Positions 896-13,933 of a DNA stretch of 19,354 nucleotides are shown piece after piece (within the stretch, counting starts at the first letter, position 1; each line of letters begins with the position of its first letter). The notes under the pieces were generated by a model. The model ran no database searches. It worked only from the letters and a program-made list of their open reading frames with translations, and was not told the origin of the DNA. This DNA comes from a virus (lineage: Duplodnaviria; Heunggongvirae; Uroviricota; Caudoviricetes), in the IMG/VR virus record IMGVR_UViG_2537561977_000019, positions 1 through 19,354 of that record; one strand, given 5' to 3'. The position numbers were made by a program, and so were the translations under genes.

Positions 896-970
<75 letters not shown>

Positions 971-973
971 ATA

Positions 974-1049
<76 letters not shown>

Positions 1050-1051
1050 GC

Positions 1052-1128
1052 TGGCCCACCACCGAGGACTCGAACCTCGCACCGTCAACTTAGAAGGTTG
1101 ATGCTCTATCCGGATGAGCTAGTGGTGG
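1052..1128 (-). tRNA. tRNA-Arg (anticodon UCU)
   Basis: 77-nt cloverleaf: acceptor CCACCAC/GTGGTGG (unusual C1-G72), anticodon stem TCAAC/GTTGA with loop CTTCTAA, T-arm CGAGG-TTCGAGT-CCTCG, encoded CCA. Confidence 0.7.
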
Positions 1129-1129
1129 T

Positions 1130-1205
1130 TGGTGGCCCTTGCTGGACTTGAACCAGCGACCTGGCGATTATGAGTCGCTCGCTCTCACCACTGAGCTAAA
1201 GGGCC
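1130..1205 (-). tRNA. tRNA with CAU anticodon (Ile2/ileX-like, or elongator Met)
   Basis: Acceptor GGCCCTT/AAGGGCC, anticodon loop CTCATAA, T-arm GCTGG-TTCAAGT-CCAGC, encoded CCA. Close to my memory of E. coli ileX; Ile versus Met identity cannot be decided from sequence alone. Confidence 0.75.
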
Positions 1206-1245: not shown

Positions 1246-2304
1246 TCACTCTCTCTTTCTGATTGAATTCTGTACATCTCTTGCGGTCTGCTCAAAACGT
1301 TCAGCCTCCAGCTCGACACCAATTGCACGACGCCCCAGCGCCATCGCTGCTTTGACTGTCGAACCGGACCCCATGAAGAAATCTGCAACCAGGTCACCCG
1401 GACGACTGCTGGCGGTAATCATTTGCCGCAACATATCTGCCGGTTTTTCACAGGGATGTTTGCCCGGATAATACTGCACAGGCTTGTGCGTCCAGACATC
1501 CGTATAAGGAACGGCTGCCGATACGGAAAAATAACGCCGCAGGGATTTGTACTCTTCCAGCAGGCTGGCATACTGCCGGTTCAGCTCACTGTATGTGCTG
1601 ACCAGTTGGTGATGTGGCTTTTCCAGTTCACCCCGCTGATGTTTCTCTTCTGCCACCCGGGCAAACAGCACCTGAAGTTTTCTGTAATCATCCTCATTCG
1701 GCAACTGCCACTGACTGGCACCAAACCAGTGGGAAACCATATTTTTCTTACCTGTGGCTTCGGCAATTTGTTTTGCCGTTATACCCAGTTCGGCACGAGC
1801 ATCCCTGAAATACGATATCAGCGGTGCCATTATGTGCTGTTTGAGTTCCCTTTCTTTTGCCGCATAGCCGTCACTTTTGCCGCGATATGGCCCCTGGTAA
1901 TGTTCAGCAAACAGAACGCGCTCTGTGGCAGGAAAATATGCGCGCAGACTTTCTTTATTACACCCATTCCAACGTCCGGACGGCTTCGCCCAGATGATAT
2001 GGTTAAGCACGTTGAAACGTTCACGCATCATGATCTCAATATCAGATGCCAGGCGATGCCCACAGAACAGGTAAAGGCTTCCGGCAGGTTTCAACACCCG
2101 CCAGAACTGGGCCAGACAGTGGTCCAGCCACTTAAGGTAATCTTCGTCCCCTTTCCACTGATTGTCCCAACCGTTAGGTTTCACCTTGAAGTAAGGCGGA
2201 TCGGTAACAATCAGGTCAATGGAATCATCAGGCAGGGACTGAATAAAATGCAGGCAATCAGCGTTGATTAAATCAACACTGTTTATTTTTACAGTATTTT
2301 TCAT
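1246..2304 (-). CDS. DNA methyltransferase, beta-class (N6-adenine or N4-cytosine), 352 aa
   Basis: Catalytic motif DPPY near the N-terminus (LIVTDPPYF) and the SAM-binding motif FxGxG near the C-terminus (DFFMGSGSTVKAA). ATG at 2304; no strong SD. Confidence 0.8.
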   Translation of the reverse strand: MKNTVKINSVDLINADCLHFIQSLPDDSIDLIVTDPPYFKVKPNGWDNQWKGDEDYLKWLDHCLAQFWRVLKPAGSLYLFCGHRLASDIEIMMRERFNVLNHIIWAKPSGRWNGCNKESLRAYFPATERVLFAEHYQGPYRGKSDGYAAKERELKQHIMAPLISYFRDARAELGITAKQIAEATGKKNMVSHWFGASQWQLPNEDDYRKLQVLFARVAEEKHQRGELEKPHHQLVSTYSELNRQYASLLEEYKSLRRYFSVSAAVPYTDVWTHKPVQYYPGKHPCEKPADMLRQMITASSRPGDLVADFFMGSGSTVKAAMALGRRAIGVELEAERFEQTARDVQNSIRKRE

Positions 2305-2454
2305 GGATCAGTAAGCGTAACTCTGGTAGGCTCACTCTGCTTTTGCGCTAAAGCAGTGGGCCGTGGTTCGCTTGTGACCAGTAAGCATGAGCGAATGGCT
2401 GGCAGGTGCTACCAACACCCACCAGCCGCCCATTTTCACAGCAGGAAACCGCCA

Positions 2455-2682
2455 TTACTGGCAGCGTCTGAATTTATTCCCGTACCCGCCGTTATCCTTC
2501 GCCAGACCCGCCAAAACTAACTGAGTCAGTATTAACTGGCACCGGGCTTCGCTTACTCCGGTAGTTCTCGTCATCATGCGTGGCGTTACCCACTTGTCAG
2601 CAGGTAAGAAATGAAGGACTGCGGCGGCGGTTTCTGTCATATCTTGCTGTTTTAGCATGTCTTTTTCCCTTCTGGTTAACAT
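2455..2682 (-). CDS. Small hypothetical protein (67-75 aa)
   Basis: ORF just downstream of the tR'-like terminator. Alternative ATG at 2658 has an AAGGG SD about 9 nt upstream. No recognisable motif. Confidence 0.45.
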   Translation of the reverse strand: MLTRREKDMLKQQDMTETAAAVLHFLPADKWVTPRMMTRTTGVSEARCQLILTQLVLAGLAKDNGGYGNKFRRCQ

Positions 2683-8394: not shown

Positions 8395-9554
8395 TTACGC
8401 CCCCTTACCTCTGAAGGGTTCAGCGACAAATTTATGAGACTGGCCAGTAGCGCCGCGTCGTTGATGCGGTCATACAGACTTACAGCCAGCGGGGATTCGG
8501 CTTTTGCCAACATGGGATAAAGCTGCTGCAGCCAGACCTGATGAATTGATGAAATGTAGGAATAGAGAACGCTGGCGTTATGTGCAACGTCGCTCAGTAC
8601 AGAGGGATTTGAAAGCTGTTTCTCCATCTGGTTAAAGGCATTGATGTATGCCTCTTTGAACCGGGCAGCACGTTTACCCGTGAAACCCATAGCAAGAAAC
8701 GCAAAGCCGTCGCGGGTTATTTGATAGCAAGGAAGTTTGCGAGTACCGCCGTTGGGCTGGCGTACCAAAATTGATGTCTCCGCAAAATTGCGGGCACAAA
8801 ACTCTGGAGAACAATCCAAAATGCGGATCTTTTTCAGAACATCGTCATGACGTTTAGAGAAGAAGTCAGCAACAGCCAAAGAAGATGTAACAGCCTGACC
8901 ATCAACGATGGCAATTTCAGGTTGAGAGAGGGTTGGGAGAGTAGTCATGGTGACAGCCCCGGTAGTCAGTTTTTTAGAAAACTCACCACATGGGACGCCA
9001 ATCACAGAGGTGGTGAGACGTACAGGGTTGGCGTTACCGGAGACTACCGAACCCGGCCCGACCGAAGTCGGCCCTGTACGCCCCACCATAATTTGGGCGT
9101 AGCAATGCTCATGACACGAAAAAACCGCATGAGCGCGGTTATGCTCAGTAATCAATTTCAGGACGCCAATCCCGGCACCCGTTTTATAAGGTGCCTGAAC
9201 AGTGTAACGTCCCGGAATGGCAGAATCAATGTGCTGGTGGTCCTTCACACTCAACAAAATCACGCCTGAATTTCCACAAAGGACTAAAGCACTCATGCGG
9301 GTAGTCTTTGCGAAGATAGATAACGCGCTGTGTTTCTGGCTCCCAACGAATAACATGAACATAAAGTCCTCTTCCGTCACGAAACCAGCGGTTAAGTTCC
9401 TGCACAACTCGCCCCCCACAGTCAGGTAAAGTTCTCTGTGGTTACTTACAGCCAGGTGATTTGGTAATCTGCATTCATGCCGTAACAACAGGTGTGCAGC
9501 GACACTGACCACCAGCTGTTGCGACAAACGGTTATTTGCCGTTAAACTGTTCAT
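8391..9554 (-). CDS. Rha-family regulatory-domain protein with a ~200-aa N-terminal extension of unknown function
   Basis: Residues ~205-330 match the Rha pattern (AVADFFSKRHDDVLKKIRIL ... RDGFAFLAMGFTGKRAARFKEAYINAFNQME). ATG at 9554 overlaps the upstream stop (ATGA) with a GGAG SD; the frame stays open for 387 codons. An internal ATG at 8948 would give an Rha-only protein. Confidence 0.6.
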   Translation of the reverse strand: MNSLTANNRLSQQLVVSVAAHLLLRHECRLPNHLAVSNHRELYLTVGGELCRNLTAGFVTEEDFMFMLFVGSQKHSALSIFAKTTRMSALVLCGNSGVILLSVKDHQHIDSAIPGRYTVQAPYKTGAGIGVLKLITEHNRAHAVFSCHEHCYAQIMVGRTGPTSVGPGSVVSGNANPVRLTTSVIGVPCGEFSKKLTTGAVTMTTLPTLSQPEIAIVDGQAVTSSLAVADFFSKRHDDVLKKIRILDCSPEFCARNFAETSILVRQPNGGTRKLPCYQITRDGFAFLAMGFTGKRAARFKEAYINAFNQMEKQLSNPSVLSDVAHNASVLYSYISSIHQVWLQQLYPMLAKAESPLAVSLYDRINDAALLASLINLSLNPSEVRGRK

Positions 9555-10163: not shown

Positions 10164-10427
10164 TTACGCAGCTGAACCGCTAACTTTTGAATAGCACTCA
10201 GGTAATCCATCATTTGGATTGGGGTAAATATCAGGACGCAGTTCATGAGGGGTCACGGACCAGTTTCCCAACTCACAAAGTTGTAAAACCCGTTCTGACG
10301 GGACTTGATTGTTAATTACCCAATTAGCGACGGATTGAGTGGACTTAAAACCAAAGCGACGGGCTACTTCAGATAAAGATTTTCCCGCAGCTTTTACTGC
10401 TTTCTCTGTGTAGTTTTGAGATGACAT
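10164..10427 (-). CDS. Cro-like HTH regulator (YdaS-like)
   Basis: 87 aa with an HTH segment (LSEVARRFGFKSTQSVANWV), divergent from the CI-like gene; GAGGAG SD before the ATG at 10427. Confidence 0.75.
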   Translation of the reverse strand: MSSQNYTEKAVKAAGKSLSEVARRFGFKSTQSVANWVINNQVPSERVLQLCELGNWSVTPHELRPDIYPNPNDGLPECYSKVSGSAA

Positions 10428-10533
10428 ACCTTTCTCCTCTGAAATTCAGAGGGATAATGCTACTTAAAATAGCAAAATGCAACTACTTAAAATAGAAATG
10501 ACTAGCGTATGTGATGTGAGTAATCTTCTACCT
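10428..10533. promoter_or_regulatory. Immunity-region operator/promoter interval (OR with divergent pR and pRM)
   Basis: 106-bp interval between divergent cro-like and cI-like starts. Contains two exact 13-bp direct repeats CTACTTAAAATAG (10460-10472, 10483-10495). Minus strand carries TTGCAT-17-CATTAT as a pR-like element. Confidence 0.5.
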
Positions 10534-11238
10534 ATGGTAGAAGAACAGAAGTATCCAGATTTCGCCAAGAGACTAAACGAGCTAATGACAAACAAGGGAA
10601 TTTCTGTCACCCAACTCAAAAGTCTTGTGGGCGTTACATATGAAATGGCGCGGCGATACACAATCGGCGCTGCGAAGCCTCGTGCCTCTGTCATGAATAA
10701 ACTTGCATTGGCTCTGGGGGTATCAGCTTCATATTTAGAATATGGTGTTGGCGAGAGAGAAGGATGTAAGGAAATGACAAGCATCCCCAATCCAACAAAA
10801 CCCGATGTATACAGGATAGAAGTTTTGGATCTTAGCGTTAGCGCAGGACCTGGGACCTATATGCTTTCAGACTATGTTGATGTGCTCTACGCCATTGAGT
10901 TCACAACAGAACATGCCCGTTCTCTTTTCGGCAACCGTTCTCAGGATGATATTAAGGTTATGACTGTAAATGGCGATAGTATGTCCCCTACTCTCGTTTC
11001 CGGAGACCGACTGTTTGTCGACATTTCTGTTCGTCACTTCCAGACTGATGGAGTTTACTCTTTCGTTTACGGTAAGACTTTTCATGTCAAACGTCTTCAA
11101 ATGCAAGGTGACAAGCTAGCCGTTCTTTCGGATAACCCCGCCTATGAGAAATGGTATATCGATGAAAAATCGCAGGATCAGCTTTATGTAATGGGCAAGG
11201 CGTTGATTCACGAATCTATAAAATACAACCGATTGTAA
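10534..11238 (+). CDS. CI-like prophage repressor (HTH plus S24 LexA-like peptidase domain)
   Basis: N-terminal HTH (FAKRLNELMTNKGISVTQLKSLVG) and C-terminal S24 motifs (VNGDSMSPTL ... GDRLFVD ... KRL). Start is uncertain: in-frame ATGs at 10477, 10498 and 10534, none with an SD, consistent with a leaderless pRM transcript. Confidence 0.8.
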   Translation: MVEEQKYPDFAKRLNELMTNKGISVTQLKSLVGVTYEMARRYTIGAAKPRASVMNKLALALGVSASYLEYGVGEREGCKEMTSIPNPTKPDVYRIEVLDLSVSAGPGTYMLSDYVDVLYAIEFTTEHARSLFGNRSQDDIKVMTVNGDSMSPTLVSGDRLFVDISVRHFQTDGVYSFVYGKTFHVKRLQMQGDKLAVLSDNPAYEKWYIDEKSQDQLYVMGKALIHESIKYNRL

Positions 11239-11282: not shown

Positions 11283-11690
11283 ATGAAATCTGAACTATTT
11301 CATAACGAAGCAAATTCAGAAATTATCACCGCAGATGAGTTTATTGATTTCATAAACTCTTTCAAAAAGCCTTTAATTTGCCAAATTTGCGGAAATCAAT
11401 CATGGAGTGTAGTCGGTACTCTAGAACTTGAAGTTGAAGACAATCAGCCAAAACATCACGTAATCGAAGTTCTCAGCTATGCCCAATACAAACCTGAAAC
11501 TGATAGCGCTATAAATTATCCTGGTGGTATGCCGCTGTTTCGAATCACCTGTGATCACTGTGCACATGTACTTCTTTTTTCTTATAAAAAAGCTAGATCA
11601 TTGATCCAAAAAAGAAAAATGAAAAAGAAGAGGATGGGAAATGACGCGACCTTATCTCAGAGCAGTACCAAACTGTGGATCTGGTATTGA
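11283..11690 (+). CDS. Hypothetical Zn-ribbon protein (135 aa) in an AT-rich cassette co-oriented with cI
   Basis: ATG at 11283 with an AAGGA SD, 45 nt after the cI stop. Two CxxC pairs (CQICGN and CDHC) and a basic C-terminus. AT-rich composition by eye. Confidence 0.55.
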   Translation: MKSELFHNEANSEIITADEFIDFINSFKKPLICQICGNQSWSVVGTLELEVEDNQPKHHVIEVLSYAQYKPETDSAINYPGGMPLFRITCDHCAHVLLFSYKKARSLIQKRKMKKKRMGNDATLSQSSTKLWIWY

Positions 11691-12273
11691 TAAGTGTGAC
11701 CTTTACCCCAATGTTAAGAACAGGCTGCGCGTCGGTATAGAAGAAATGTATACTGATTTTATCGAATCCGCAGATGAAACTTACAAAACTGATGGGGGAA
11801 ATAAAATGTCATCAGTTAGTCGAGAAGAAATTCAAGCACTTTTAGCTGCCAATAAAGCAGAAATGGAGTCCATTGCATCCTCTATTAGAGTTGAAATGGC
11901 TTTATCTCGCGAGAACACAAACGTTCAGCTAGCATCTCTAAATTCAGCCATCAATTCTATCTCTTCGAAAATCGAAGGCAAAATGGACAGTGTTGACGGG
12001 GATGTGAAGGCCATCAATGGTAGATTCGAAGGTATACAAGGCCAAATTACTGGAATAAATACAGCCATTAGTGGTATTCAATCTGGAATTTCTACCAGAC
12101 TTGCTATTTTTGGAGTTATCATTGCGGTCATAGTTGCATTACCTAGCATAATTTCTGCTTTTAAAGATACTTCGCCAGTAGTTCAACCAGTTACACAACA
12201 ACCAAGTGTTAAACATCTCAACCAAGAACCAATTACTCCACAAGTATTACCTCCGCAGGGAAAAGCAAACTAA
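11641..12273 (+). CDS. Hypothetical coiled-coil protein with a single C-terminal transmembrane helix
   Basis: Two candidate starts, each with a good SD: 11641 (GAGGA, overlaps the previous ORF by 50 nt) and 11806 (GGGGGA). Heptad-like Ser/Ile/Gly repeats, then LAIFGVIIAVIVALPSIISAF and a Pro/Gln-rich tail. Confidence 0.55.
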   Translation: MTRPYLRAVPNCGSGIDKCDLYPNVKNRLRVGIEEMYTDFIESADETYKTDGGNKMSSVSREEIQALLAANKAEMESIASSIRVEMALSRENTNVQLASLNSAINSISSKIEGKMDSVDGDVKAINGRFEGIQGQITGINTAISGIQSGISTRLAIFGVIIAVIVALPSIISAFKDTSPVVQPVTQQPSVKHLNQEPITPQVLPPQGKAN

Positions 12274-12297
12274 ACCGGCTTTATGCCGGTTTTTTTC
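12274..12297 (+). terminator. Intrinsic terminator ending the cI-linked cassette
   Basis: Stem ACCGGC (12274-12279) / GCCGGT (12285-12290), loop TTTAT, followed by TTTTTTC. Confidence 0.75.
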
Positions 12298-12399
12298 TAT
12301 ACAAACGCCCCCTCTTTGTCTTGAATCACATCACAACACATTTAAAAAACATTTTAAATTCAAAGCATTAAACGCATCAACGCATATCAAACAAATTAT

Positions 12400-12448
12400 C
12401 TACTTTTAGTTGTTGATTTTTGCTACTTTTGGTAGCAGAATTATTTTA
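12400..12448 (+). promoter_or_regulatory. Candidate pL/OL: plus-strand promoter overlapping operator-like sites
   Basis: TTGCTA (12420-12425), 16-nt spacer, TATTTT (12442-12447). Overlaps CTACTTTTGGTAG (12423-12435) and sits next to CTACTTTTAG (12400-12409), both sharing the CTACTT...TAG ends of the OR repeats. Confidence 0.4.
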
Positions 12449-12520
12449 ACGACAACGAACAGGCAGGACGCCCACGAAGTAGCCGCCTGGGGCATATGAA
12501 GTCCAGGATGATTCGTTAGC

Positions 12521-12547
12521 AACAAAAAAGCGCCCTACAGGACGCTT
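12521..12547 (-). terminator. Intrinsic terminator for the convergent minus-strand gene
   Basis: Stem AAGCG / CGCTT with a 10-nt loop, followed on the minus strand by TTTTTTGT. Confidence 0.45.
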
Positions 12548-12585
12548 AGCTCTTTAACAATCTGGATATCCACAACAGTAGTAAT

Positions 12586-13077
12586 CTACAGATTGCCGTT
12601 AAGTTTTCTGGACAACTCCTCAATGGATGGAGGCGATACGTAATCCGGATTTTTATTCATCAGAAACTTATTTTCACAGTGGAGGCACCTGCTTTTATGA
12701 AAAAGCTCATCTTCGCTAACCGGGAATGGTTGAAGTATCGATACTATCTTTTGTCCAAAACATTTTGGGCAAAGATGCATGGTTATGCTGCCACCGTTCA
12801 CGATTACCTCCTTCGAGTATACAAAAGTACCCGACTCAAGTTGGTTAAGGATATAGCCTTCCGTCTGAGCCTCAAAGTTTTCGAATTCTGCAATTTTAGC
12901 TTTGAGAGAAGCATTTATTTCTTGATAAGAGCCCACCAGTTCAACGAGAGACACGCATTCGCGCTGAATAGACGCAAGCTTTGAGTTCAGCTCACCAATA
13001 GCCGCATTTACTTCAGCTTGAGTTTTTGCCTCGTTCATTAGTTTTGCAATCTGGGCTGTTTCACGAATAGCCGTCAT
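12586..13077 (-). CDS. Hypothetical coiled-coil protein with a C-terminal Zn-ribbon (about 163 aa)
   Basis: AT-rich ORF convergent on the cI cassette. Likely start ATG 13077 or GTG 13101 (AAGAG SD); the longer ORF-track N-terminus is Arg/Pro-rich and judged non-coding. C-terminus HLCPKCFGQ ... CLHCENKF. Confidence 0.5.
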   Translation of the reverse strand: MTAIRETAQIAKLMNEAKTQAEVNAAIGELNSKLASIQRECVSLVELVGSYQEINASLKAKIAEFENFEAQTEGYILNQLESGTFVYSKEVIVNGGSITMHLCPKCFGQKIVSILQPFPVSEDELFHKSRCLHCENKFLMNKNPDYVSPPSIEELSRKLNGNL

Positions 13078-13115
13078 TGCTGCCGTTAATTCAGCGATCA
13101 CATTGAATACTCTTA

Positions 13116-13169
13116 TTGTTGTTGGGGATATCCAGATTAACCGAATCCTTGTTGTTGGGGAATAACCAG
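13116..13169. repeat. Tandem direct repeat TTGTTGTTGGGGA-TA-CCAG (two copies)
   Basis: 13116-13135 TTGTTGTTGGGGATATCCAG and 13149-13169 TTGTTGTTGGGGAATAACCAG, just upstream of the minus-strand gene start. Confidence 0.4.
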
Positions 13170-13388
13170 GTCCACCTCGCCTGATGTGGCTAAAAGCAGG
13201 CACATAACAGCTAAGTATTTTCAACCAGAGAGAATCCTTAGCGTTGTGGTGAATGCGGCTCAGCGCACGCGGGTTAAGGTTGAGGCTGACAGTCGACCTT
13301 CTGTGGATACCCACCCGTCTGGTGTGCAACCTTCGCCAGGCACCGGGAGGCACCCGGCACCACAACTTTATGCTGTGTGTAGTCCTGG

Positions 13389-13433
13389 CGGTACCAGTTT
13401 GTACCCTTGCTTCCGGCTGGTACCGTCCTTTTT
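13389..13433 (+). terminator. Terminator-like hairpin with T-tract in the early-left leader
   Basis: 9-bp arms CGGTACCAG (13389-13397) / CTGGTACCG (13417-13425), then TCCTTTTT. About 140 nt upstream of the first early-left gene. Confidence 0.4.
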
Positions 13434-13570
13434 ACAAAACAGAGAAGAGCATCACCGGACGACGGGCTCATAACCCAATCCATCCGGGCGGCTGCCACCG
13501 CAGGTGTTCTTCTCTGTTTTGTGGAGAAACCAACCGGCCTTGCAGGGTCGATATGATGAGGAGCAGCAAA

Positions 13571-13933
13571 ATGGCTAGCGAACGCAGTACTGATGTGCAG
13601 GCATTTATCGGGGAGTTGGACGGCGGCGTATTTGAAACCAAAATCGGCGCAGTTCTCAGTGAAGTCGCTTCAGGTGTGATGAACACGAAAACCAAAGGTA
13701 AGGTCTCACTCAACCTGGAAATCGAACCATTTGATGAGAACCGTGTGAAAATCAAACACAAACTCTCATATGTTCGCCCGACTAACCGCGGGAAAATTTC
13801 CGAAGAAGACACCACCGAAACGCCGATGTATGTCAATCGCGGTGGTCGCCTGACTATTCTGCAGGAAGACCAGGGACAATTACTGACTCTTGCCGGTGAA
13901 CCTGACGGAAAACTCCGCGCAGCAGGTCATTAA
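13571..13933 (+). CDS. Hypothetical early-left protein, YfdP-like (about 120 aa)
   Basis: ATG 13571 with a GAGGAG SD; the longer ORF-track N-terminus is GC-rich leader. Family name is a tentative match based on size and gene order. Confidence 0.5.
   Translation: MASERSTDVQAFIGELDGGVFETKIGAVLSEVASGVMNTKTKGKVSLNLEIEPFDENRVKIKHKLSYVRPTNRGKISEEDTTETPMYVNRGGRLTILQEDQGQLLTLAGEPDGKLRAAGH

Follow-up and report, generated by a model that had tools for sequence, protein, structure and literature searches.

Two described systems form the background to the gene considered here, which occupies 12586-13101 on the minus strand of the viral stretch IMGVR_UViG_2537561977_000019 (19,354 nt; the window below means this whole stretch), and to the leader in front of it. 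The first is Rip1 (ring interacting pore 1), a single-protein prophage defence that builds up around terminase or portal rings of phages, permeabilises the membrane and so protects the population; the second is the leader of the lambdoid exclusion gene sieB together with its antisense RNA, sas. The primary description of Rip1 is reportedly that of Patel et al. in Nature in 2026, and the primary study of sas is said to be that of Ranade and Poteete, the sieB/sas leader having been known since 1993. Rip1 by itself is harmless; 12 monomers encircle the 11-mer terminase ring, the N-terminal amphipathic helices make a pore, infected cells lyse prematurely, and escape mutations fall in the portal for phages of Pseudomonas and the small terminase for those of E. 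coli (PMC13434031). In phage P22, the sequence of sas is the complement of the sieB leader region (PMC13397905 Table 2), and sas acts as a translational switch for sieB, shutting down translation of SieB while the phage itself grows lytically (PMC12197685, PMC7067206). Based on its sequence, profile and fold matches to Rip1, we assign the window protein to the Rip1 family (phrog_1244), in which it is a diverged member, and its gene stands in the sieB slot behind a leader homologous to that of sieB. Both the Rip1 family (2026) and the sieB/sas leader (1993) were already known; the window gene and its leader are new, diverged members of the two.

The gene appears in the open-reading-frame list as 12586-13365 (minus strand), starting at a TTG. 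All 40 aligned homologues begin with MIAELSAAM, which corresponds to the GTG at 13099-13101, and the PGAP annotation of IHE3034 contains an identical 516-nt gene call (WP_000559922.1). We therefore take the coding sequence to be 12586-13101, intact and encoding 171 aa from the GTG. It is followed by an intrinsic terminator of its own (12518-12547, minus strand), a stem-loop at 12547-12528 with eight pairs, five of them G-C, and then the T-rich tail TTTTGTTGCT. This terminator is kept 3' of the gene in other genera; on the plus strand the same hairpin lies within the pL leader and has no U-run. The neighbouring genes run on the other strand; this gene, flanked by a conserved leader and a terminator of its own, is carried by prophages and also by phages that can be induced, PhiR49_1 among them. 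The original prediction had described a self-contained accessory moron in the immunity/early-left region, on the strand opposite to pL, with an open reading frame, its own terminator and two direct repeats 33 bp apart. All of these elements are real, the frame having 171 intact codons and the repeats an exact 13-nt core, and the antisense orientation is consistent with the operator layout and with the position of the cI-like gene. Two details need adjusting: the terminator had been put at 12521-12547, where we place the stem at 12528-12547, and the gene had been called AT-rich, which is true only mildly (42.8% GC against 47.5% for the window).

The protein had also been said to combine a coiled coil with a Zn-ribbon and to match no family. 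The first of these statements agrees with an AlphaFold2 model built from the 40-sequence alignment (mean pLDDT 85.5), in which helices at residues 2-24 and 28-79 precede a beta domain, and with four invariant cysteines in that alignment (C111, C114, C139 and C142), where the motifs LKAKIAEFENF and EGYxLNQLESGxFVYS are conserved as well. The second does not hold, as profile and structure searches place the protein in the Rip1 family. Its PHROGs match is phrog_1244 ('unknown function', E 9.3e-60), a group also matched by HkaP of HK620, gp25 of DMS3 and a protein of 606R2; the 123 homologues, spread across Enterobacterales, are all annotated 'hypothetical'. Foldseek against the PDB returned only 9oox_L and 9oox_M (E 1e-6, probability 1.0, target-normalised TM-score 0.54-0.73), the next-best match having an E of 0.3. 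By its title, entry 9oox shows Rip1 of Escherichia phage HK446 bound to the small terminase of Enterobacteria phage T6. A phmmer search of PDB sequences led to this entry as well ('ring interacting pore 1 (Rip1)', E 2.7e-7), with the CxxC pairs and an SILQ motif aligned. With tblastn, relatives at 28-30% identity are HkaP of HK620 and HK630 and orf25 of the Mu-like Pseudomonas phages DMS3, JBD30 and D3112, and when the profile of the 40-sequence family was compared by hhalign with that of HkaP, DMS3-25 and the 606R2 protein, 156 columns aligned at 99.9% probability (E 5.7e-33). None of these proteins departs from the CxxC...CxxC cysteines or from the G..VY and ILQ motifs.

Compared with Rip1 of HK446 and of the JBD/DMS3-type Pseudomonas phages, the window protein belongs to the same PHROG, is of similar size (171 aa against 164-175 aa), and shares the invariant motifs and the predicted fold, with long N-terminal helices followed by a C-terminal beta/four-cysteine domain. 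Both are single prophage genes on the strand opposite to their neighbours. The window protein differs in forming an Enterobacterales subfamily of its own, marked by LKAKIAEFENF and EGYxLNQLESG, and in its location. The gene for DMS3-25 lies on the opposite strand between the small and large terminase genes, which is the position given for Pseudomonas Rip1 in a 2026 review (PMC13434031), whereas the window gene lies in the immunity region. By homology, the activity and trigger of the window protein would be those of Rip1, that is, pore-based defence. In this respect the earlier reading of the locus as an accessory defence gene was broadly right, the defence role being backed by homology to Rip1. 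We found no transmembrane or hydrophobic segment in the window protein, the maximum 19-residue Kyte-Doolittle mean being 0.85.

Since a four-cysteine ribbon combined with a coiled coil is common in DNA- and RNA-binding proteins, the protein could instead be a zinc-ribbon regulator, for example of pL transcription, with no pore-forming role. A weak NCBIfam match to RNA polymerase subunit P (E 0.022) points the same way. However, the Pfam, NCBIfam and PADLOC searches gave no significant match for the window protein, all regulator-type matches were far below thresholds, and the only significant structural and sequence match is Rip1. Moreover, the gene is freely replaced in relatives by unrelated cargos including SieB (see below), which fits an accessory defence gene and not a core regulator. 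We consider a regulatory role very improbable.

Two further genes are worth recording here. In an O157:H7 Rac-like prophage (L022, with racR and dicB), a Rip1-like gene ~94% identical to that of the window (1961-2476) has the same leader and a different downstream hairpin. In UViG_2675903675_000003 (L065), the cargo behind a leader of TTCCACAGTCAA type is a protein of 136 aa whose N-terminus is a coiled coil and which has CPNC...CSFC motifs; its architecture is Rip1-like without a BLAST link to Rip1, and it may be a relative that has diverged further.

The window is an E. coli lambdoid prophage, and the slot holding the gene, between the pL leader and the first early-left genes, is the one used by lambda, P22 and Rac for sieB, antisense to pL (in lambda, sieB is at 34482-35036, plus strand). 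With SieB of these phages the window gene shares slot, orientation and leader, and SieB, too, is a prophage-expressed abortive-infection/exclusion function. The proteins, however, are unrelated: SieB is a membrane protein of ~190 aa, the window protein lacks a hydrophobic segment, the two fall into separate BLAST clusters, and no Pfam or PHROG SieB match was obtained for the window protein. The nearest parallel is HK620, where hkaP, annotated as 'putative superinfection exclusion protein' (Clark et al. 2001 annotation), occupies the same place as lambda sieB. It is likewise a Rip1-family gene behind a sieB-type leader, the same leader that precedes lambda sieB. HK620 has the lambda-type leader, and N/nutL lie between its pL and the slot, whereas in the window a boxA-like site directly adjoins the slot.

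The repeats upstream of the gene are part of this leader. An exact 13-nt sequence, TTGTTGTTGGGGA, is present at 13116-13128 and again at 13149-13161, 33 nt from start to start; an exact 13-mer direct repeat within 60 nt arose in 2 of 200 mononucleotide shuffles of the window. The repeats proper are TTGTTGTTGGGGATATCCAG (box 1, 13116-13135) and TTGTTGTTGGGGAATAACCAG (box 2, 13149-13169), and each is contained in a longer unit of ~34 nt, so that the whole promoter-leader (13102-13170, minus strand) is a tandem duplication of unit A (13170-13136) and unit B (13135-13102). The units have the form CTGG-TAT-CCCCAACAACAA-N-AAT and align with a score of 11, against -7.5 +/- 3.5 in shuffles, none of which reached as high a score (0/2000). 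The 3' end of unit B is the ribosome-binding site (RBS; AAGAG, 13114-13110), followed by the GTG. By inspection of the aligned leaders, a putative -10 hexamer, GTTAAT (13136-13141, minus strand), falls between the boxes. At the same position the relatives have TATAAT (L021, L047, L050, L066, L030, L059), GATAAT (L005, L013), TAAAAT (HK620) or TAATAT. Transcription would then start at ~13129 and give a 28-nt 5' untranslated region (UTR) beginning with AUCCCCAACAACAA, the first ~14 nt of which come from box 1, while box 2 would lie in the -35/spacer region, at about -32 to -20. A by-eye look for sigma-54, sigma-E and extended -10 patterns in the leader gave nothing convincing.

The original prediction took the repeats for binding sites of a regulator. 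The comparisons tell against an operator private to this gene or phage: the same two-box leader, homologous to that of sieB/sas, precedes unrelated cargos and accompanies at least five repressors. At 17 loci from other genera the protein is 46-62% identical, yet the ~105 nt upstream and ~50 nt downstream of the gene are nearly unchanged. Thus, the repeats are neither absent nor variable in relatives; conservation of the ~105 nt upstream, the repeats included, exceeds that of the gene itself. Within the window, the motif occurs nowhere beyond three copies around the gene, so it is not a dispersed operator, and a scan with the prophage operator motif found matches at OR and OL only, none at the leader repeats. 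As judged from these alignments, the repeats are boxes of a shared leader and not an operator specific to this gene or phage.

The homology to the sieB leader extends over the whole ~105 nt, which align with the regions upstream of sieB in lambda, HK620 and P22. In lambda, the 110 nt upstream of sieB read GTGCCTGTCTTTTAACCACATCAGGCTCGGTGG-TTCTCGTGTACCCCTACAGCGAGAA-ATCGGATAAACTATTACAA-CCCCTACAG-TTTGATG, which is the architecture of the window leader with CCCCTACAG boxes replacing CCCCAACAACAA. When the window, relatives, lambda and P22 sas are aligned (11 sequences), 31 columns are invariant and both GGGG motifs come into register. The shared 3' block is CCACC..GCCTGA.GTGG.TAAAAG.CAGGCAC; in the window it forms the nearly invariant CCACCUCGCCUGAUGUGGCUAAAAGCAGGCAC (13172-13203, plus strand), homologous to the 3' part of P22 sas and to lambda 34395-34430. 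On the plus strand, that is, in the sense of sas and of pL, box 2 supplies the 5' arm and loop of a predicted hairpin, CCUUGUUGUU-GGGG-AAUAACCAGG (13147-13170; 9-10 bp, GGGG tetraloop, -7.2 kcal/mol), whose counterpart in lambda and P22 sas is UUCUCGCUGUA-GGGG-UACACGAGAA.

In window-type leaders, the hairpin folds with -7 to -13 kcal/mol in the sas sense and with only -1.4 to -6.8 kcal/mol on the mRNA-sense strand, a difference that arises because several pairs are G-U; an exception is L009, whose two strands fold about equally well. When both leader types are counted together, 87.8% of cells pair, compared with 36-59% when the partners are slid, and four pairs have changed on both sides, values reached by 2-6 of 500 shuffles. 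RNAalifold, applied to window-type leaders, gives a different and weaker pairing of box 2 because of alignment gaps, and the hairpin described above was counted instead. Rfam has no match to the leader on either strand. Taken side by side, the window and the sieB/sas leaders of P22, lambda and HK620 share the position antisense to pL, the order of elements, the invariant 3' block, the GGGG-loop hairpin, the -10-like hexamer, the second box, the RBS and the 33-34 nt spacing of the boxes. They differ in box sequence (CCCCAACAACAA here, CCCCTACAG there) and in cargo, which here is Rip1-like with no known Esc-type internal product, and the window type has an extra, inverted box copy 3' of the gene. 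Transcription of a sas-like RNA of ~105 nt and the translational switch are only predicted here. In e14 (L023, E. coli K-12-type; 2118-2459), only the invariant 3' block of the leader is kept, and ymfI is in the slot.

The leader could also be nothing other than a tandem promoter duplication, providing two promoters, one ahead of the start codon and one at it, the second of which may yield a shorter or leaderless message, with no antisense function. The units do align over all ~34 nt, including the terminal -10-like (T)TAAT/TCAAT, and the two-unit pattern is also found in lambda and HK620. Nevertheless, a start from unit B would fall within the first codons, losing the conserved GTG/ATG start and the RBS, and such a duplication leaves unexplained both the conserved opposite-strand hairpin with its G-U pairs and the invariant 3' block common to sas. 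We regard it as decidedly unlikely.

To see how widely the leader is distributed, we consider the IMG/VR scan with the invariant 3' block, which gave at least 120 loci; together with loci gathered earlier and the window, these comprise 86 distinct leaders. Among the matches listed, ~50 of the 86 have two boxes at a fixed spacing of 33-34 nt, the boxes fall into at least five families (CCCCAACAACAA, CCCCTACAG, TTCCACAGTCAA, CCCCAATGCAA and CCCCCACAA), and the two copies in any given leader are identical, minor variants included (for instance, CCCCAACGA twice). This is a concerted evolution of the two boxes, which are thus functionally coupled. At 51 unbiased IMG/VR loci, again among the matches listed, two-box leaders precede Rip1-family proteins (17), ECs1072-family proteins (15), SieB (2) and other or small open reading frames (17), several of these cargos being uncharacterised proteins of 42-93 aa. 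The upstream block also stands before an ECs1072-family protein in E. coli UID2309220027 and Shigella phage SfIV, before a small frame together with a membrane protein in strain E6, before SieB in Hafnia phage Pocitis76 and before a remote Rip1 homologue in vB_EcoM-606R2. The leader also co-occurs with at least five repressors: the window's own, PhiR49_1 cI, the ymfK/e14 type, racR and SfIV cI. Cargos and repressors alike being unrelated, autoregulation by the cargo and control by the prophage repressor are excluded. A query joining the flanks at the shared GGATATCC core detected no empty site among the ~90 matches listed; all were two-piece matches with cargo in between (spans of 1021, 1137 and 772-797 nt). 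Hence the classical lambdoid sieB slot is a cargo-exchange site served by one conserved promoter-leader, and this leader is a landmark for finding new prophage defence genes, ECs1072-family proteins and the small frames being candidates.

The original prediction counted two copies of the repeat, and both direct copies stand, but a third, inverted one was missed. It lies on the plus strand directly after the stop codon (AATCTGGATATCCACAACAGTAGTAA, 12559-12584), is complementary to 13113-13138 at 22 of 26 positions, and has a 13-nt core, AATCTGGATATCC, identical to that of box 1; in other genera it is conserved as GGATATCCAGATTGTTAAAGAGC. Adjoining it is a boxA-like GCTCTTTAACAA (12549-12560, plus strand), the only exact match in the window, conserved across genera and ~110 nt downstream of the inferred pL, so that the plus strand reads GCTCTTTAACAA-TCTGGATATCC. 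These 12 nt equal the consensus boxA found in rrn operons and in the nut sites of lambdoid phages. In rrn leaders a hairpin is followed by boxA, and the boxA-like site of the window stands just after a hairpin. No N-like gene was recognisable in the early-left operon of the window. On the plus-strand (pL) RNA, the two arms would pair at 25 of 26 positions, three of them G-U, as against 22 of 26 on the mRNA (by inspection), and their duplex would enclose the whole antisense copy of the gene. At 26 bp it may be long enough to be a substrate of RNase III. Complementarity of the arms beyond a core of 13-18 nt is confined to E. coli lineages (by inspection).

Arms that flank the coding sequence exactly, with 22 of 26 positions complementary and AAC on both outer sides, in a place where relatives carry different cargos, might be the ends of an invertible or transposable cassette. 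Several observations make this extremely improbable. No recombinase or transposase was seen near the gene, in the window reading frames scanned or in annotated relatives. Where the cargo differs, the outer conserved sequences stay and the inner parts of the arms change. Where extra DNA follows the stop codon (L007, L008, L017 and L018), the inverted copy stays with the adjacent boxA sequence and not with the gene. In L020, the same site leads a pL-sense frame of 68 aa with a box-1-like leader, so the 'inverted repeat' is better described as two leader units face to face than as mobile-element ends. Finally, our search set comprised 5426 E. coli genomes, 3043 of which have some match to the locus; the 1.2 kb around the gene find matches in thousands of chromosomes and are present over at least 80% of their length in 372 genomes in the native orientation, whereas the inverted query is covered to that extent in none of the 3043. 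An invertible segment is thus largely refuted, with no full-length inverted match among the 5426 genomes and no invertase annotated nearby.

The explanation that we favour, and that we consider reasonably likely, is a Rip1-family defence gene in the sieB slot, silenced by a plus-strand RNA through a sieB/sas-type leader. In the lysogen, the gene would be transcribed from the putative promoter between the boxes (-10 at 13141-13136, start at ~13129) to the terminator at 12547-12528, and its product would, by homology, be inert. The small-terminase or portal ring of an infecting phage would cause ~12 copies to assemble around it, the N-terminal helices would then form a membrane pore, and the cell would be killed or lysed before progeny mature, that is, by abortive infection. 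The plus-strand RNA, whether sas-like or the pL transcript, would carry the GGGG-loop hairpin of box 2 and the complement of box 1, and would pair with the rip1-like mRNA at its 5' end and around the RBS. Such pairing would silence the defence gene during lytic growth of the resident or a related phage and so spare the resident. If antisense control is true, it explains how a prophage escapes its own Rip1 when making its own terminase. A 'hypothetical protein' whose gene, flanks included, is covered in 372 complete E. coli genomes, a Rac-like prophage of O157:H7 among them, and whose family occurs across Enterobacterales gains a name and a testable mechanism.

A number of our own results speak against this explanation. 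The predicted helices have hydrophobic moments peaking at 0.44 (residues 7-24) and 0.41 (residues 37-54), which is suggestive only, so that the N-terminal helix is no more than moderately amphipathic (<=0.44). Identity to experimentally studied Rip1 proteins is 27-30%, and trigger and activity are extrapolated from them. The -35 (TATTCC) is weak and a sigma-70 consensus scan finds no promoter in the leader, for which reason the promoter position is one we infer; a by-eye look identified no plus-strand promoter for a sas-like RNA either. In the window-type leader taken by itself, conservation is so high that covariation in the hairpin does not beat shuffles, so support for the hairpin comes from the comparison between leader types and from the G-U asymmetry. 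In window-type leaders, box 1 forms no GGGG-loop hairpin. Lastly, the constant spacing of 33-34 bp in ~50 leaders (among the matches listed) amounts to three helical turns and puts the boxes on the same face of the helix, which would suit DNA sites for a transcription factor or RNA polymerase acting on the moron promoter equally well. The poor -35 is typical of activator-dependent promoters, and box 2, overlapping the -35/spacer, and box 1, at +2 to +14, would occupy classical activator and repressor positions. On the other hand, the unrelated cargos and at least five unrelated repressors rule out the cargo protein and cI as the factor, and at least five jointly changing box families would need matching, co-evolving regulators, for which no candidate is linked to the locus. 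Furthermore, the G-U asymmetry of the box 2 hairpin favours RNA on the opposite strand, and the homologous P22 region works through antisense RNA (PMC12197685, PMC13397905). Overall, we think a protein bound at the boxes unlikely.

Returning to silencing by a plus-strand RNA, one may speculate that the two-box leader is a portable, protein-independent RNA switch, which lets temperate phages carry abortive-infection toxins otherwise fatal to their own lytic cycle. The hairpin of the antisense RNA would display the complement of the box and capture that same box sequence where the defence mRNA has its 5' end. The need for capture would explain why both boxes change jointly in at least five leader families, and any cargo behind the leader would gain control of the type 'on in the lysogen, off for self'; through the inverted copy beside boxA, such control could reach the pL transcript as well. 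We offer this generalisation as a doubtful one.

As to the wider prophage context, the copy in IHE3034 belongs to a lambdoid prophage adjoining intD/argU, where it lies between an XRE/S24 repressor and the early-left genes yfdP-yfdT; the locus is also carried by the inducible ECOR13 phage PhiR49_1. The immunity region of the window comprises a cI-like gene (10477-11238, plus strand) with HTH and Peptidase_S24 domains, a cro-like gene (10164-10427, minus strand), OR with palindromic operators TGCTACTTNNNNTAGCA (10458-10496) and OL (12399-12437) with an inverted copy of TGCTACTTNNNNTAGCA, that is, TGCTACTTTTGGTAGCA plus a flanking half-copy. The inferred pL, TTGATT-17-CAGAAT, with hexamers read from the sequence (~12413-12441, plus strand), points toward the gene's 3' end. 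In PhiR49_1 the immunity region is another one, and homology to the window begins only at 12452; from this and the operator layout, the plus strand of the window corresponds to the leftward direction of lambda. The OR and OL sets form a 39-nt inverted repeat with 79% complementarity, built of TGCTACTT-N-TAGCA palindromes with a spacing of 23 nt. Both OR and the annotated start of cI are overlapped by a PRM-like promoter (TTAAAA-18-TAAAAT), a hint that the cI message may have a short leader or none.

Directly after cI, in the position of lambda rexAB, lies a two-gene cassette (11283-12273, plus strand; GC 38%) encoding proteins of phrog_4293 (135 aa) and phrog_5820 (210 aa); matches to MakE, a pore-forming toxin, and to PADLOC PbeC are weak and below threshold. 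It ends in a bidirectional terminator (12272-12292); at this position IHE3034 has a ParA-family gene and PhiR49_1 has nothing. Elsewhere in the window, Rfam gathering-level matches place a C4 antisense RNA (9006-9093, minus strand, 82 bits) beside an IsrK Hfq-binding RNA (9118-9194, minus strand, 60 bits). Such a C4/IsrK combination controls antirepressor/anti-Q genes in P1/P7 and Gifsy-type prophages. Four tRNA genes are clustered within the prophage at 899-1205 (minus strand; Rfam tRNA, 56-71 bits). Finally, a full-length but sub-threshold Rfam match to STnc100 covers 13213-13435 (plus strand; E 1.4e-7, 41.2 bits where the gathering score is 47), and its end, at ~13395-13435, is a hairpin resembling a terminator, with a U-run after it. 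In the frame 13253-13933, the GC-rich N-terminal half is therefore probably non-coding RNA; the PGAP annotation has a frameshifted hypothetical gene here, and ymfH of e14 matches the stretch.

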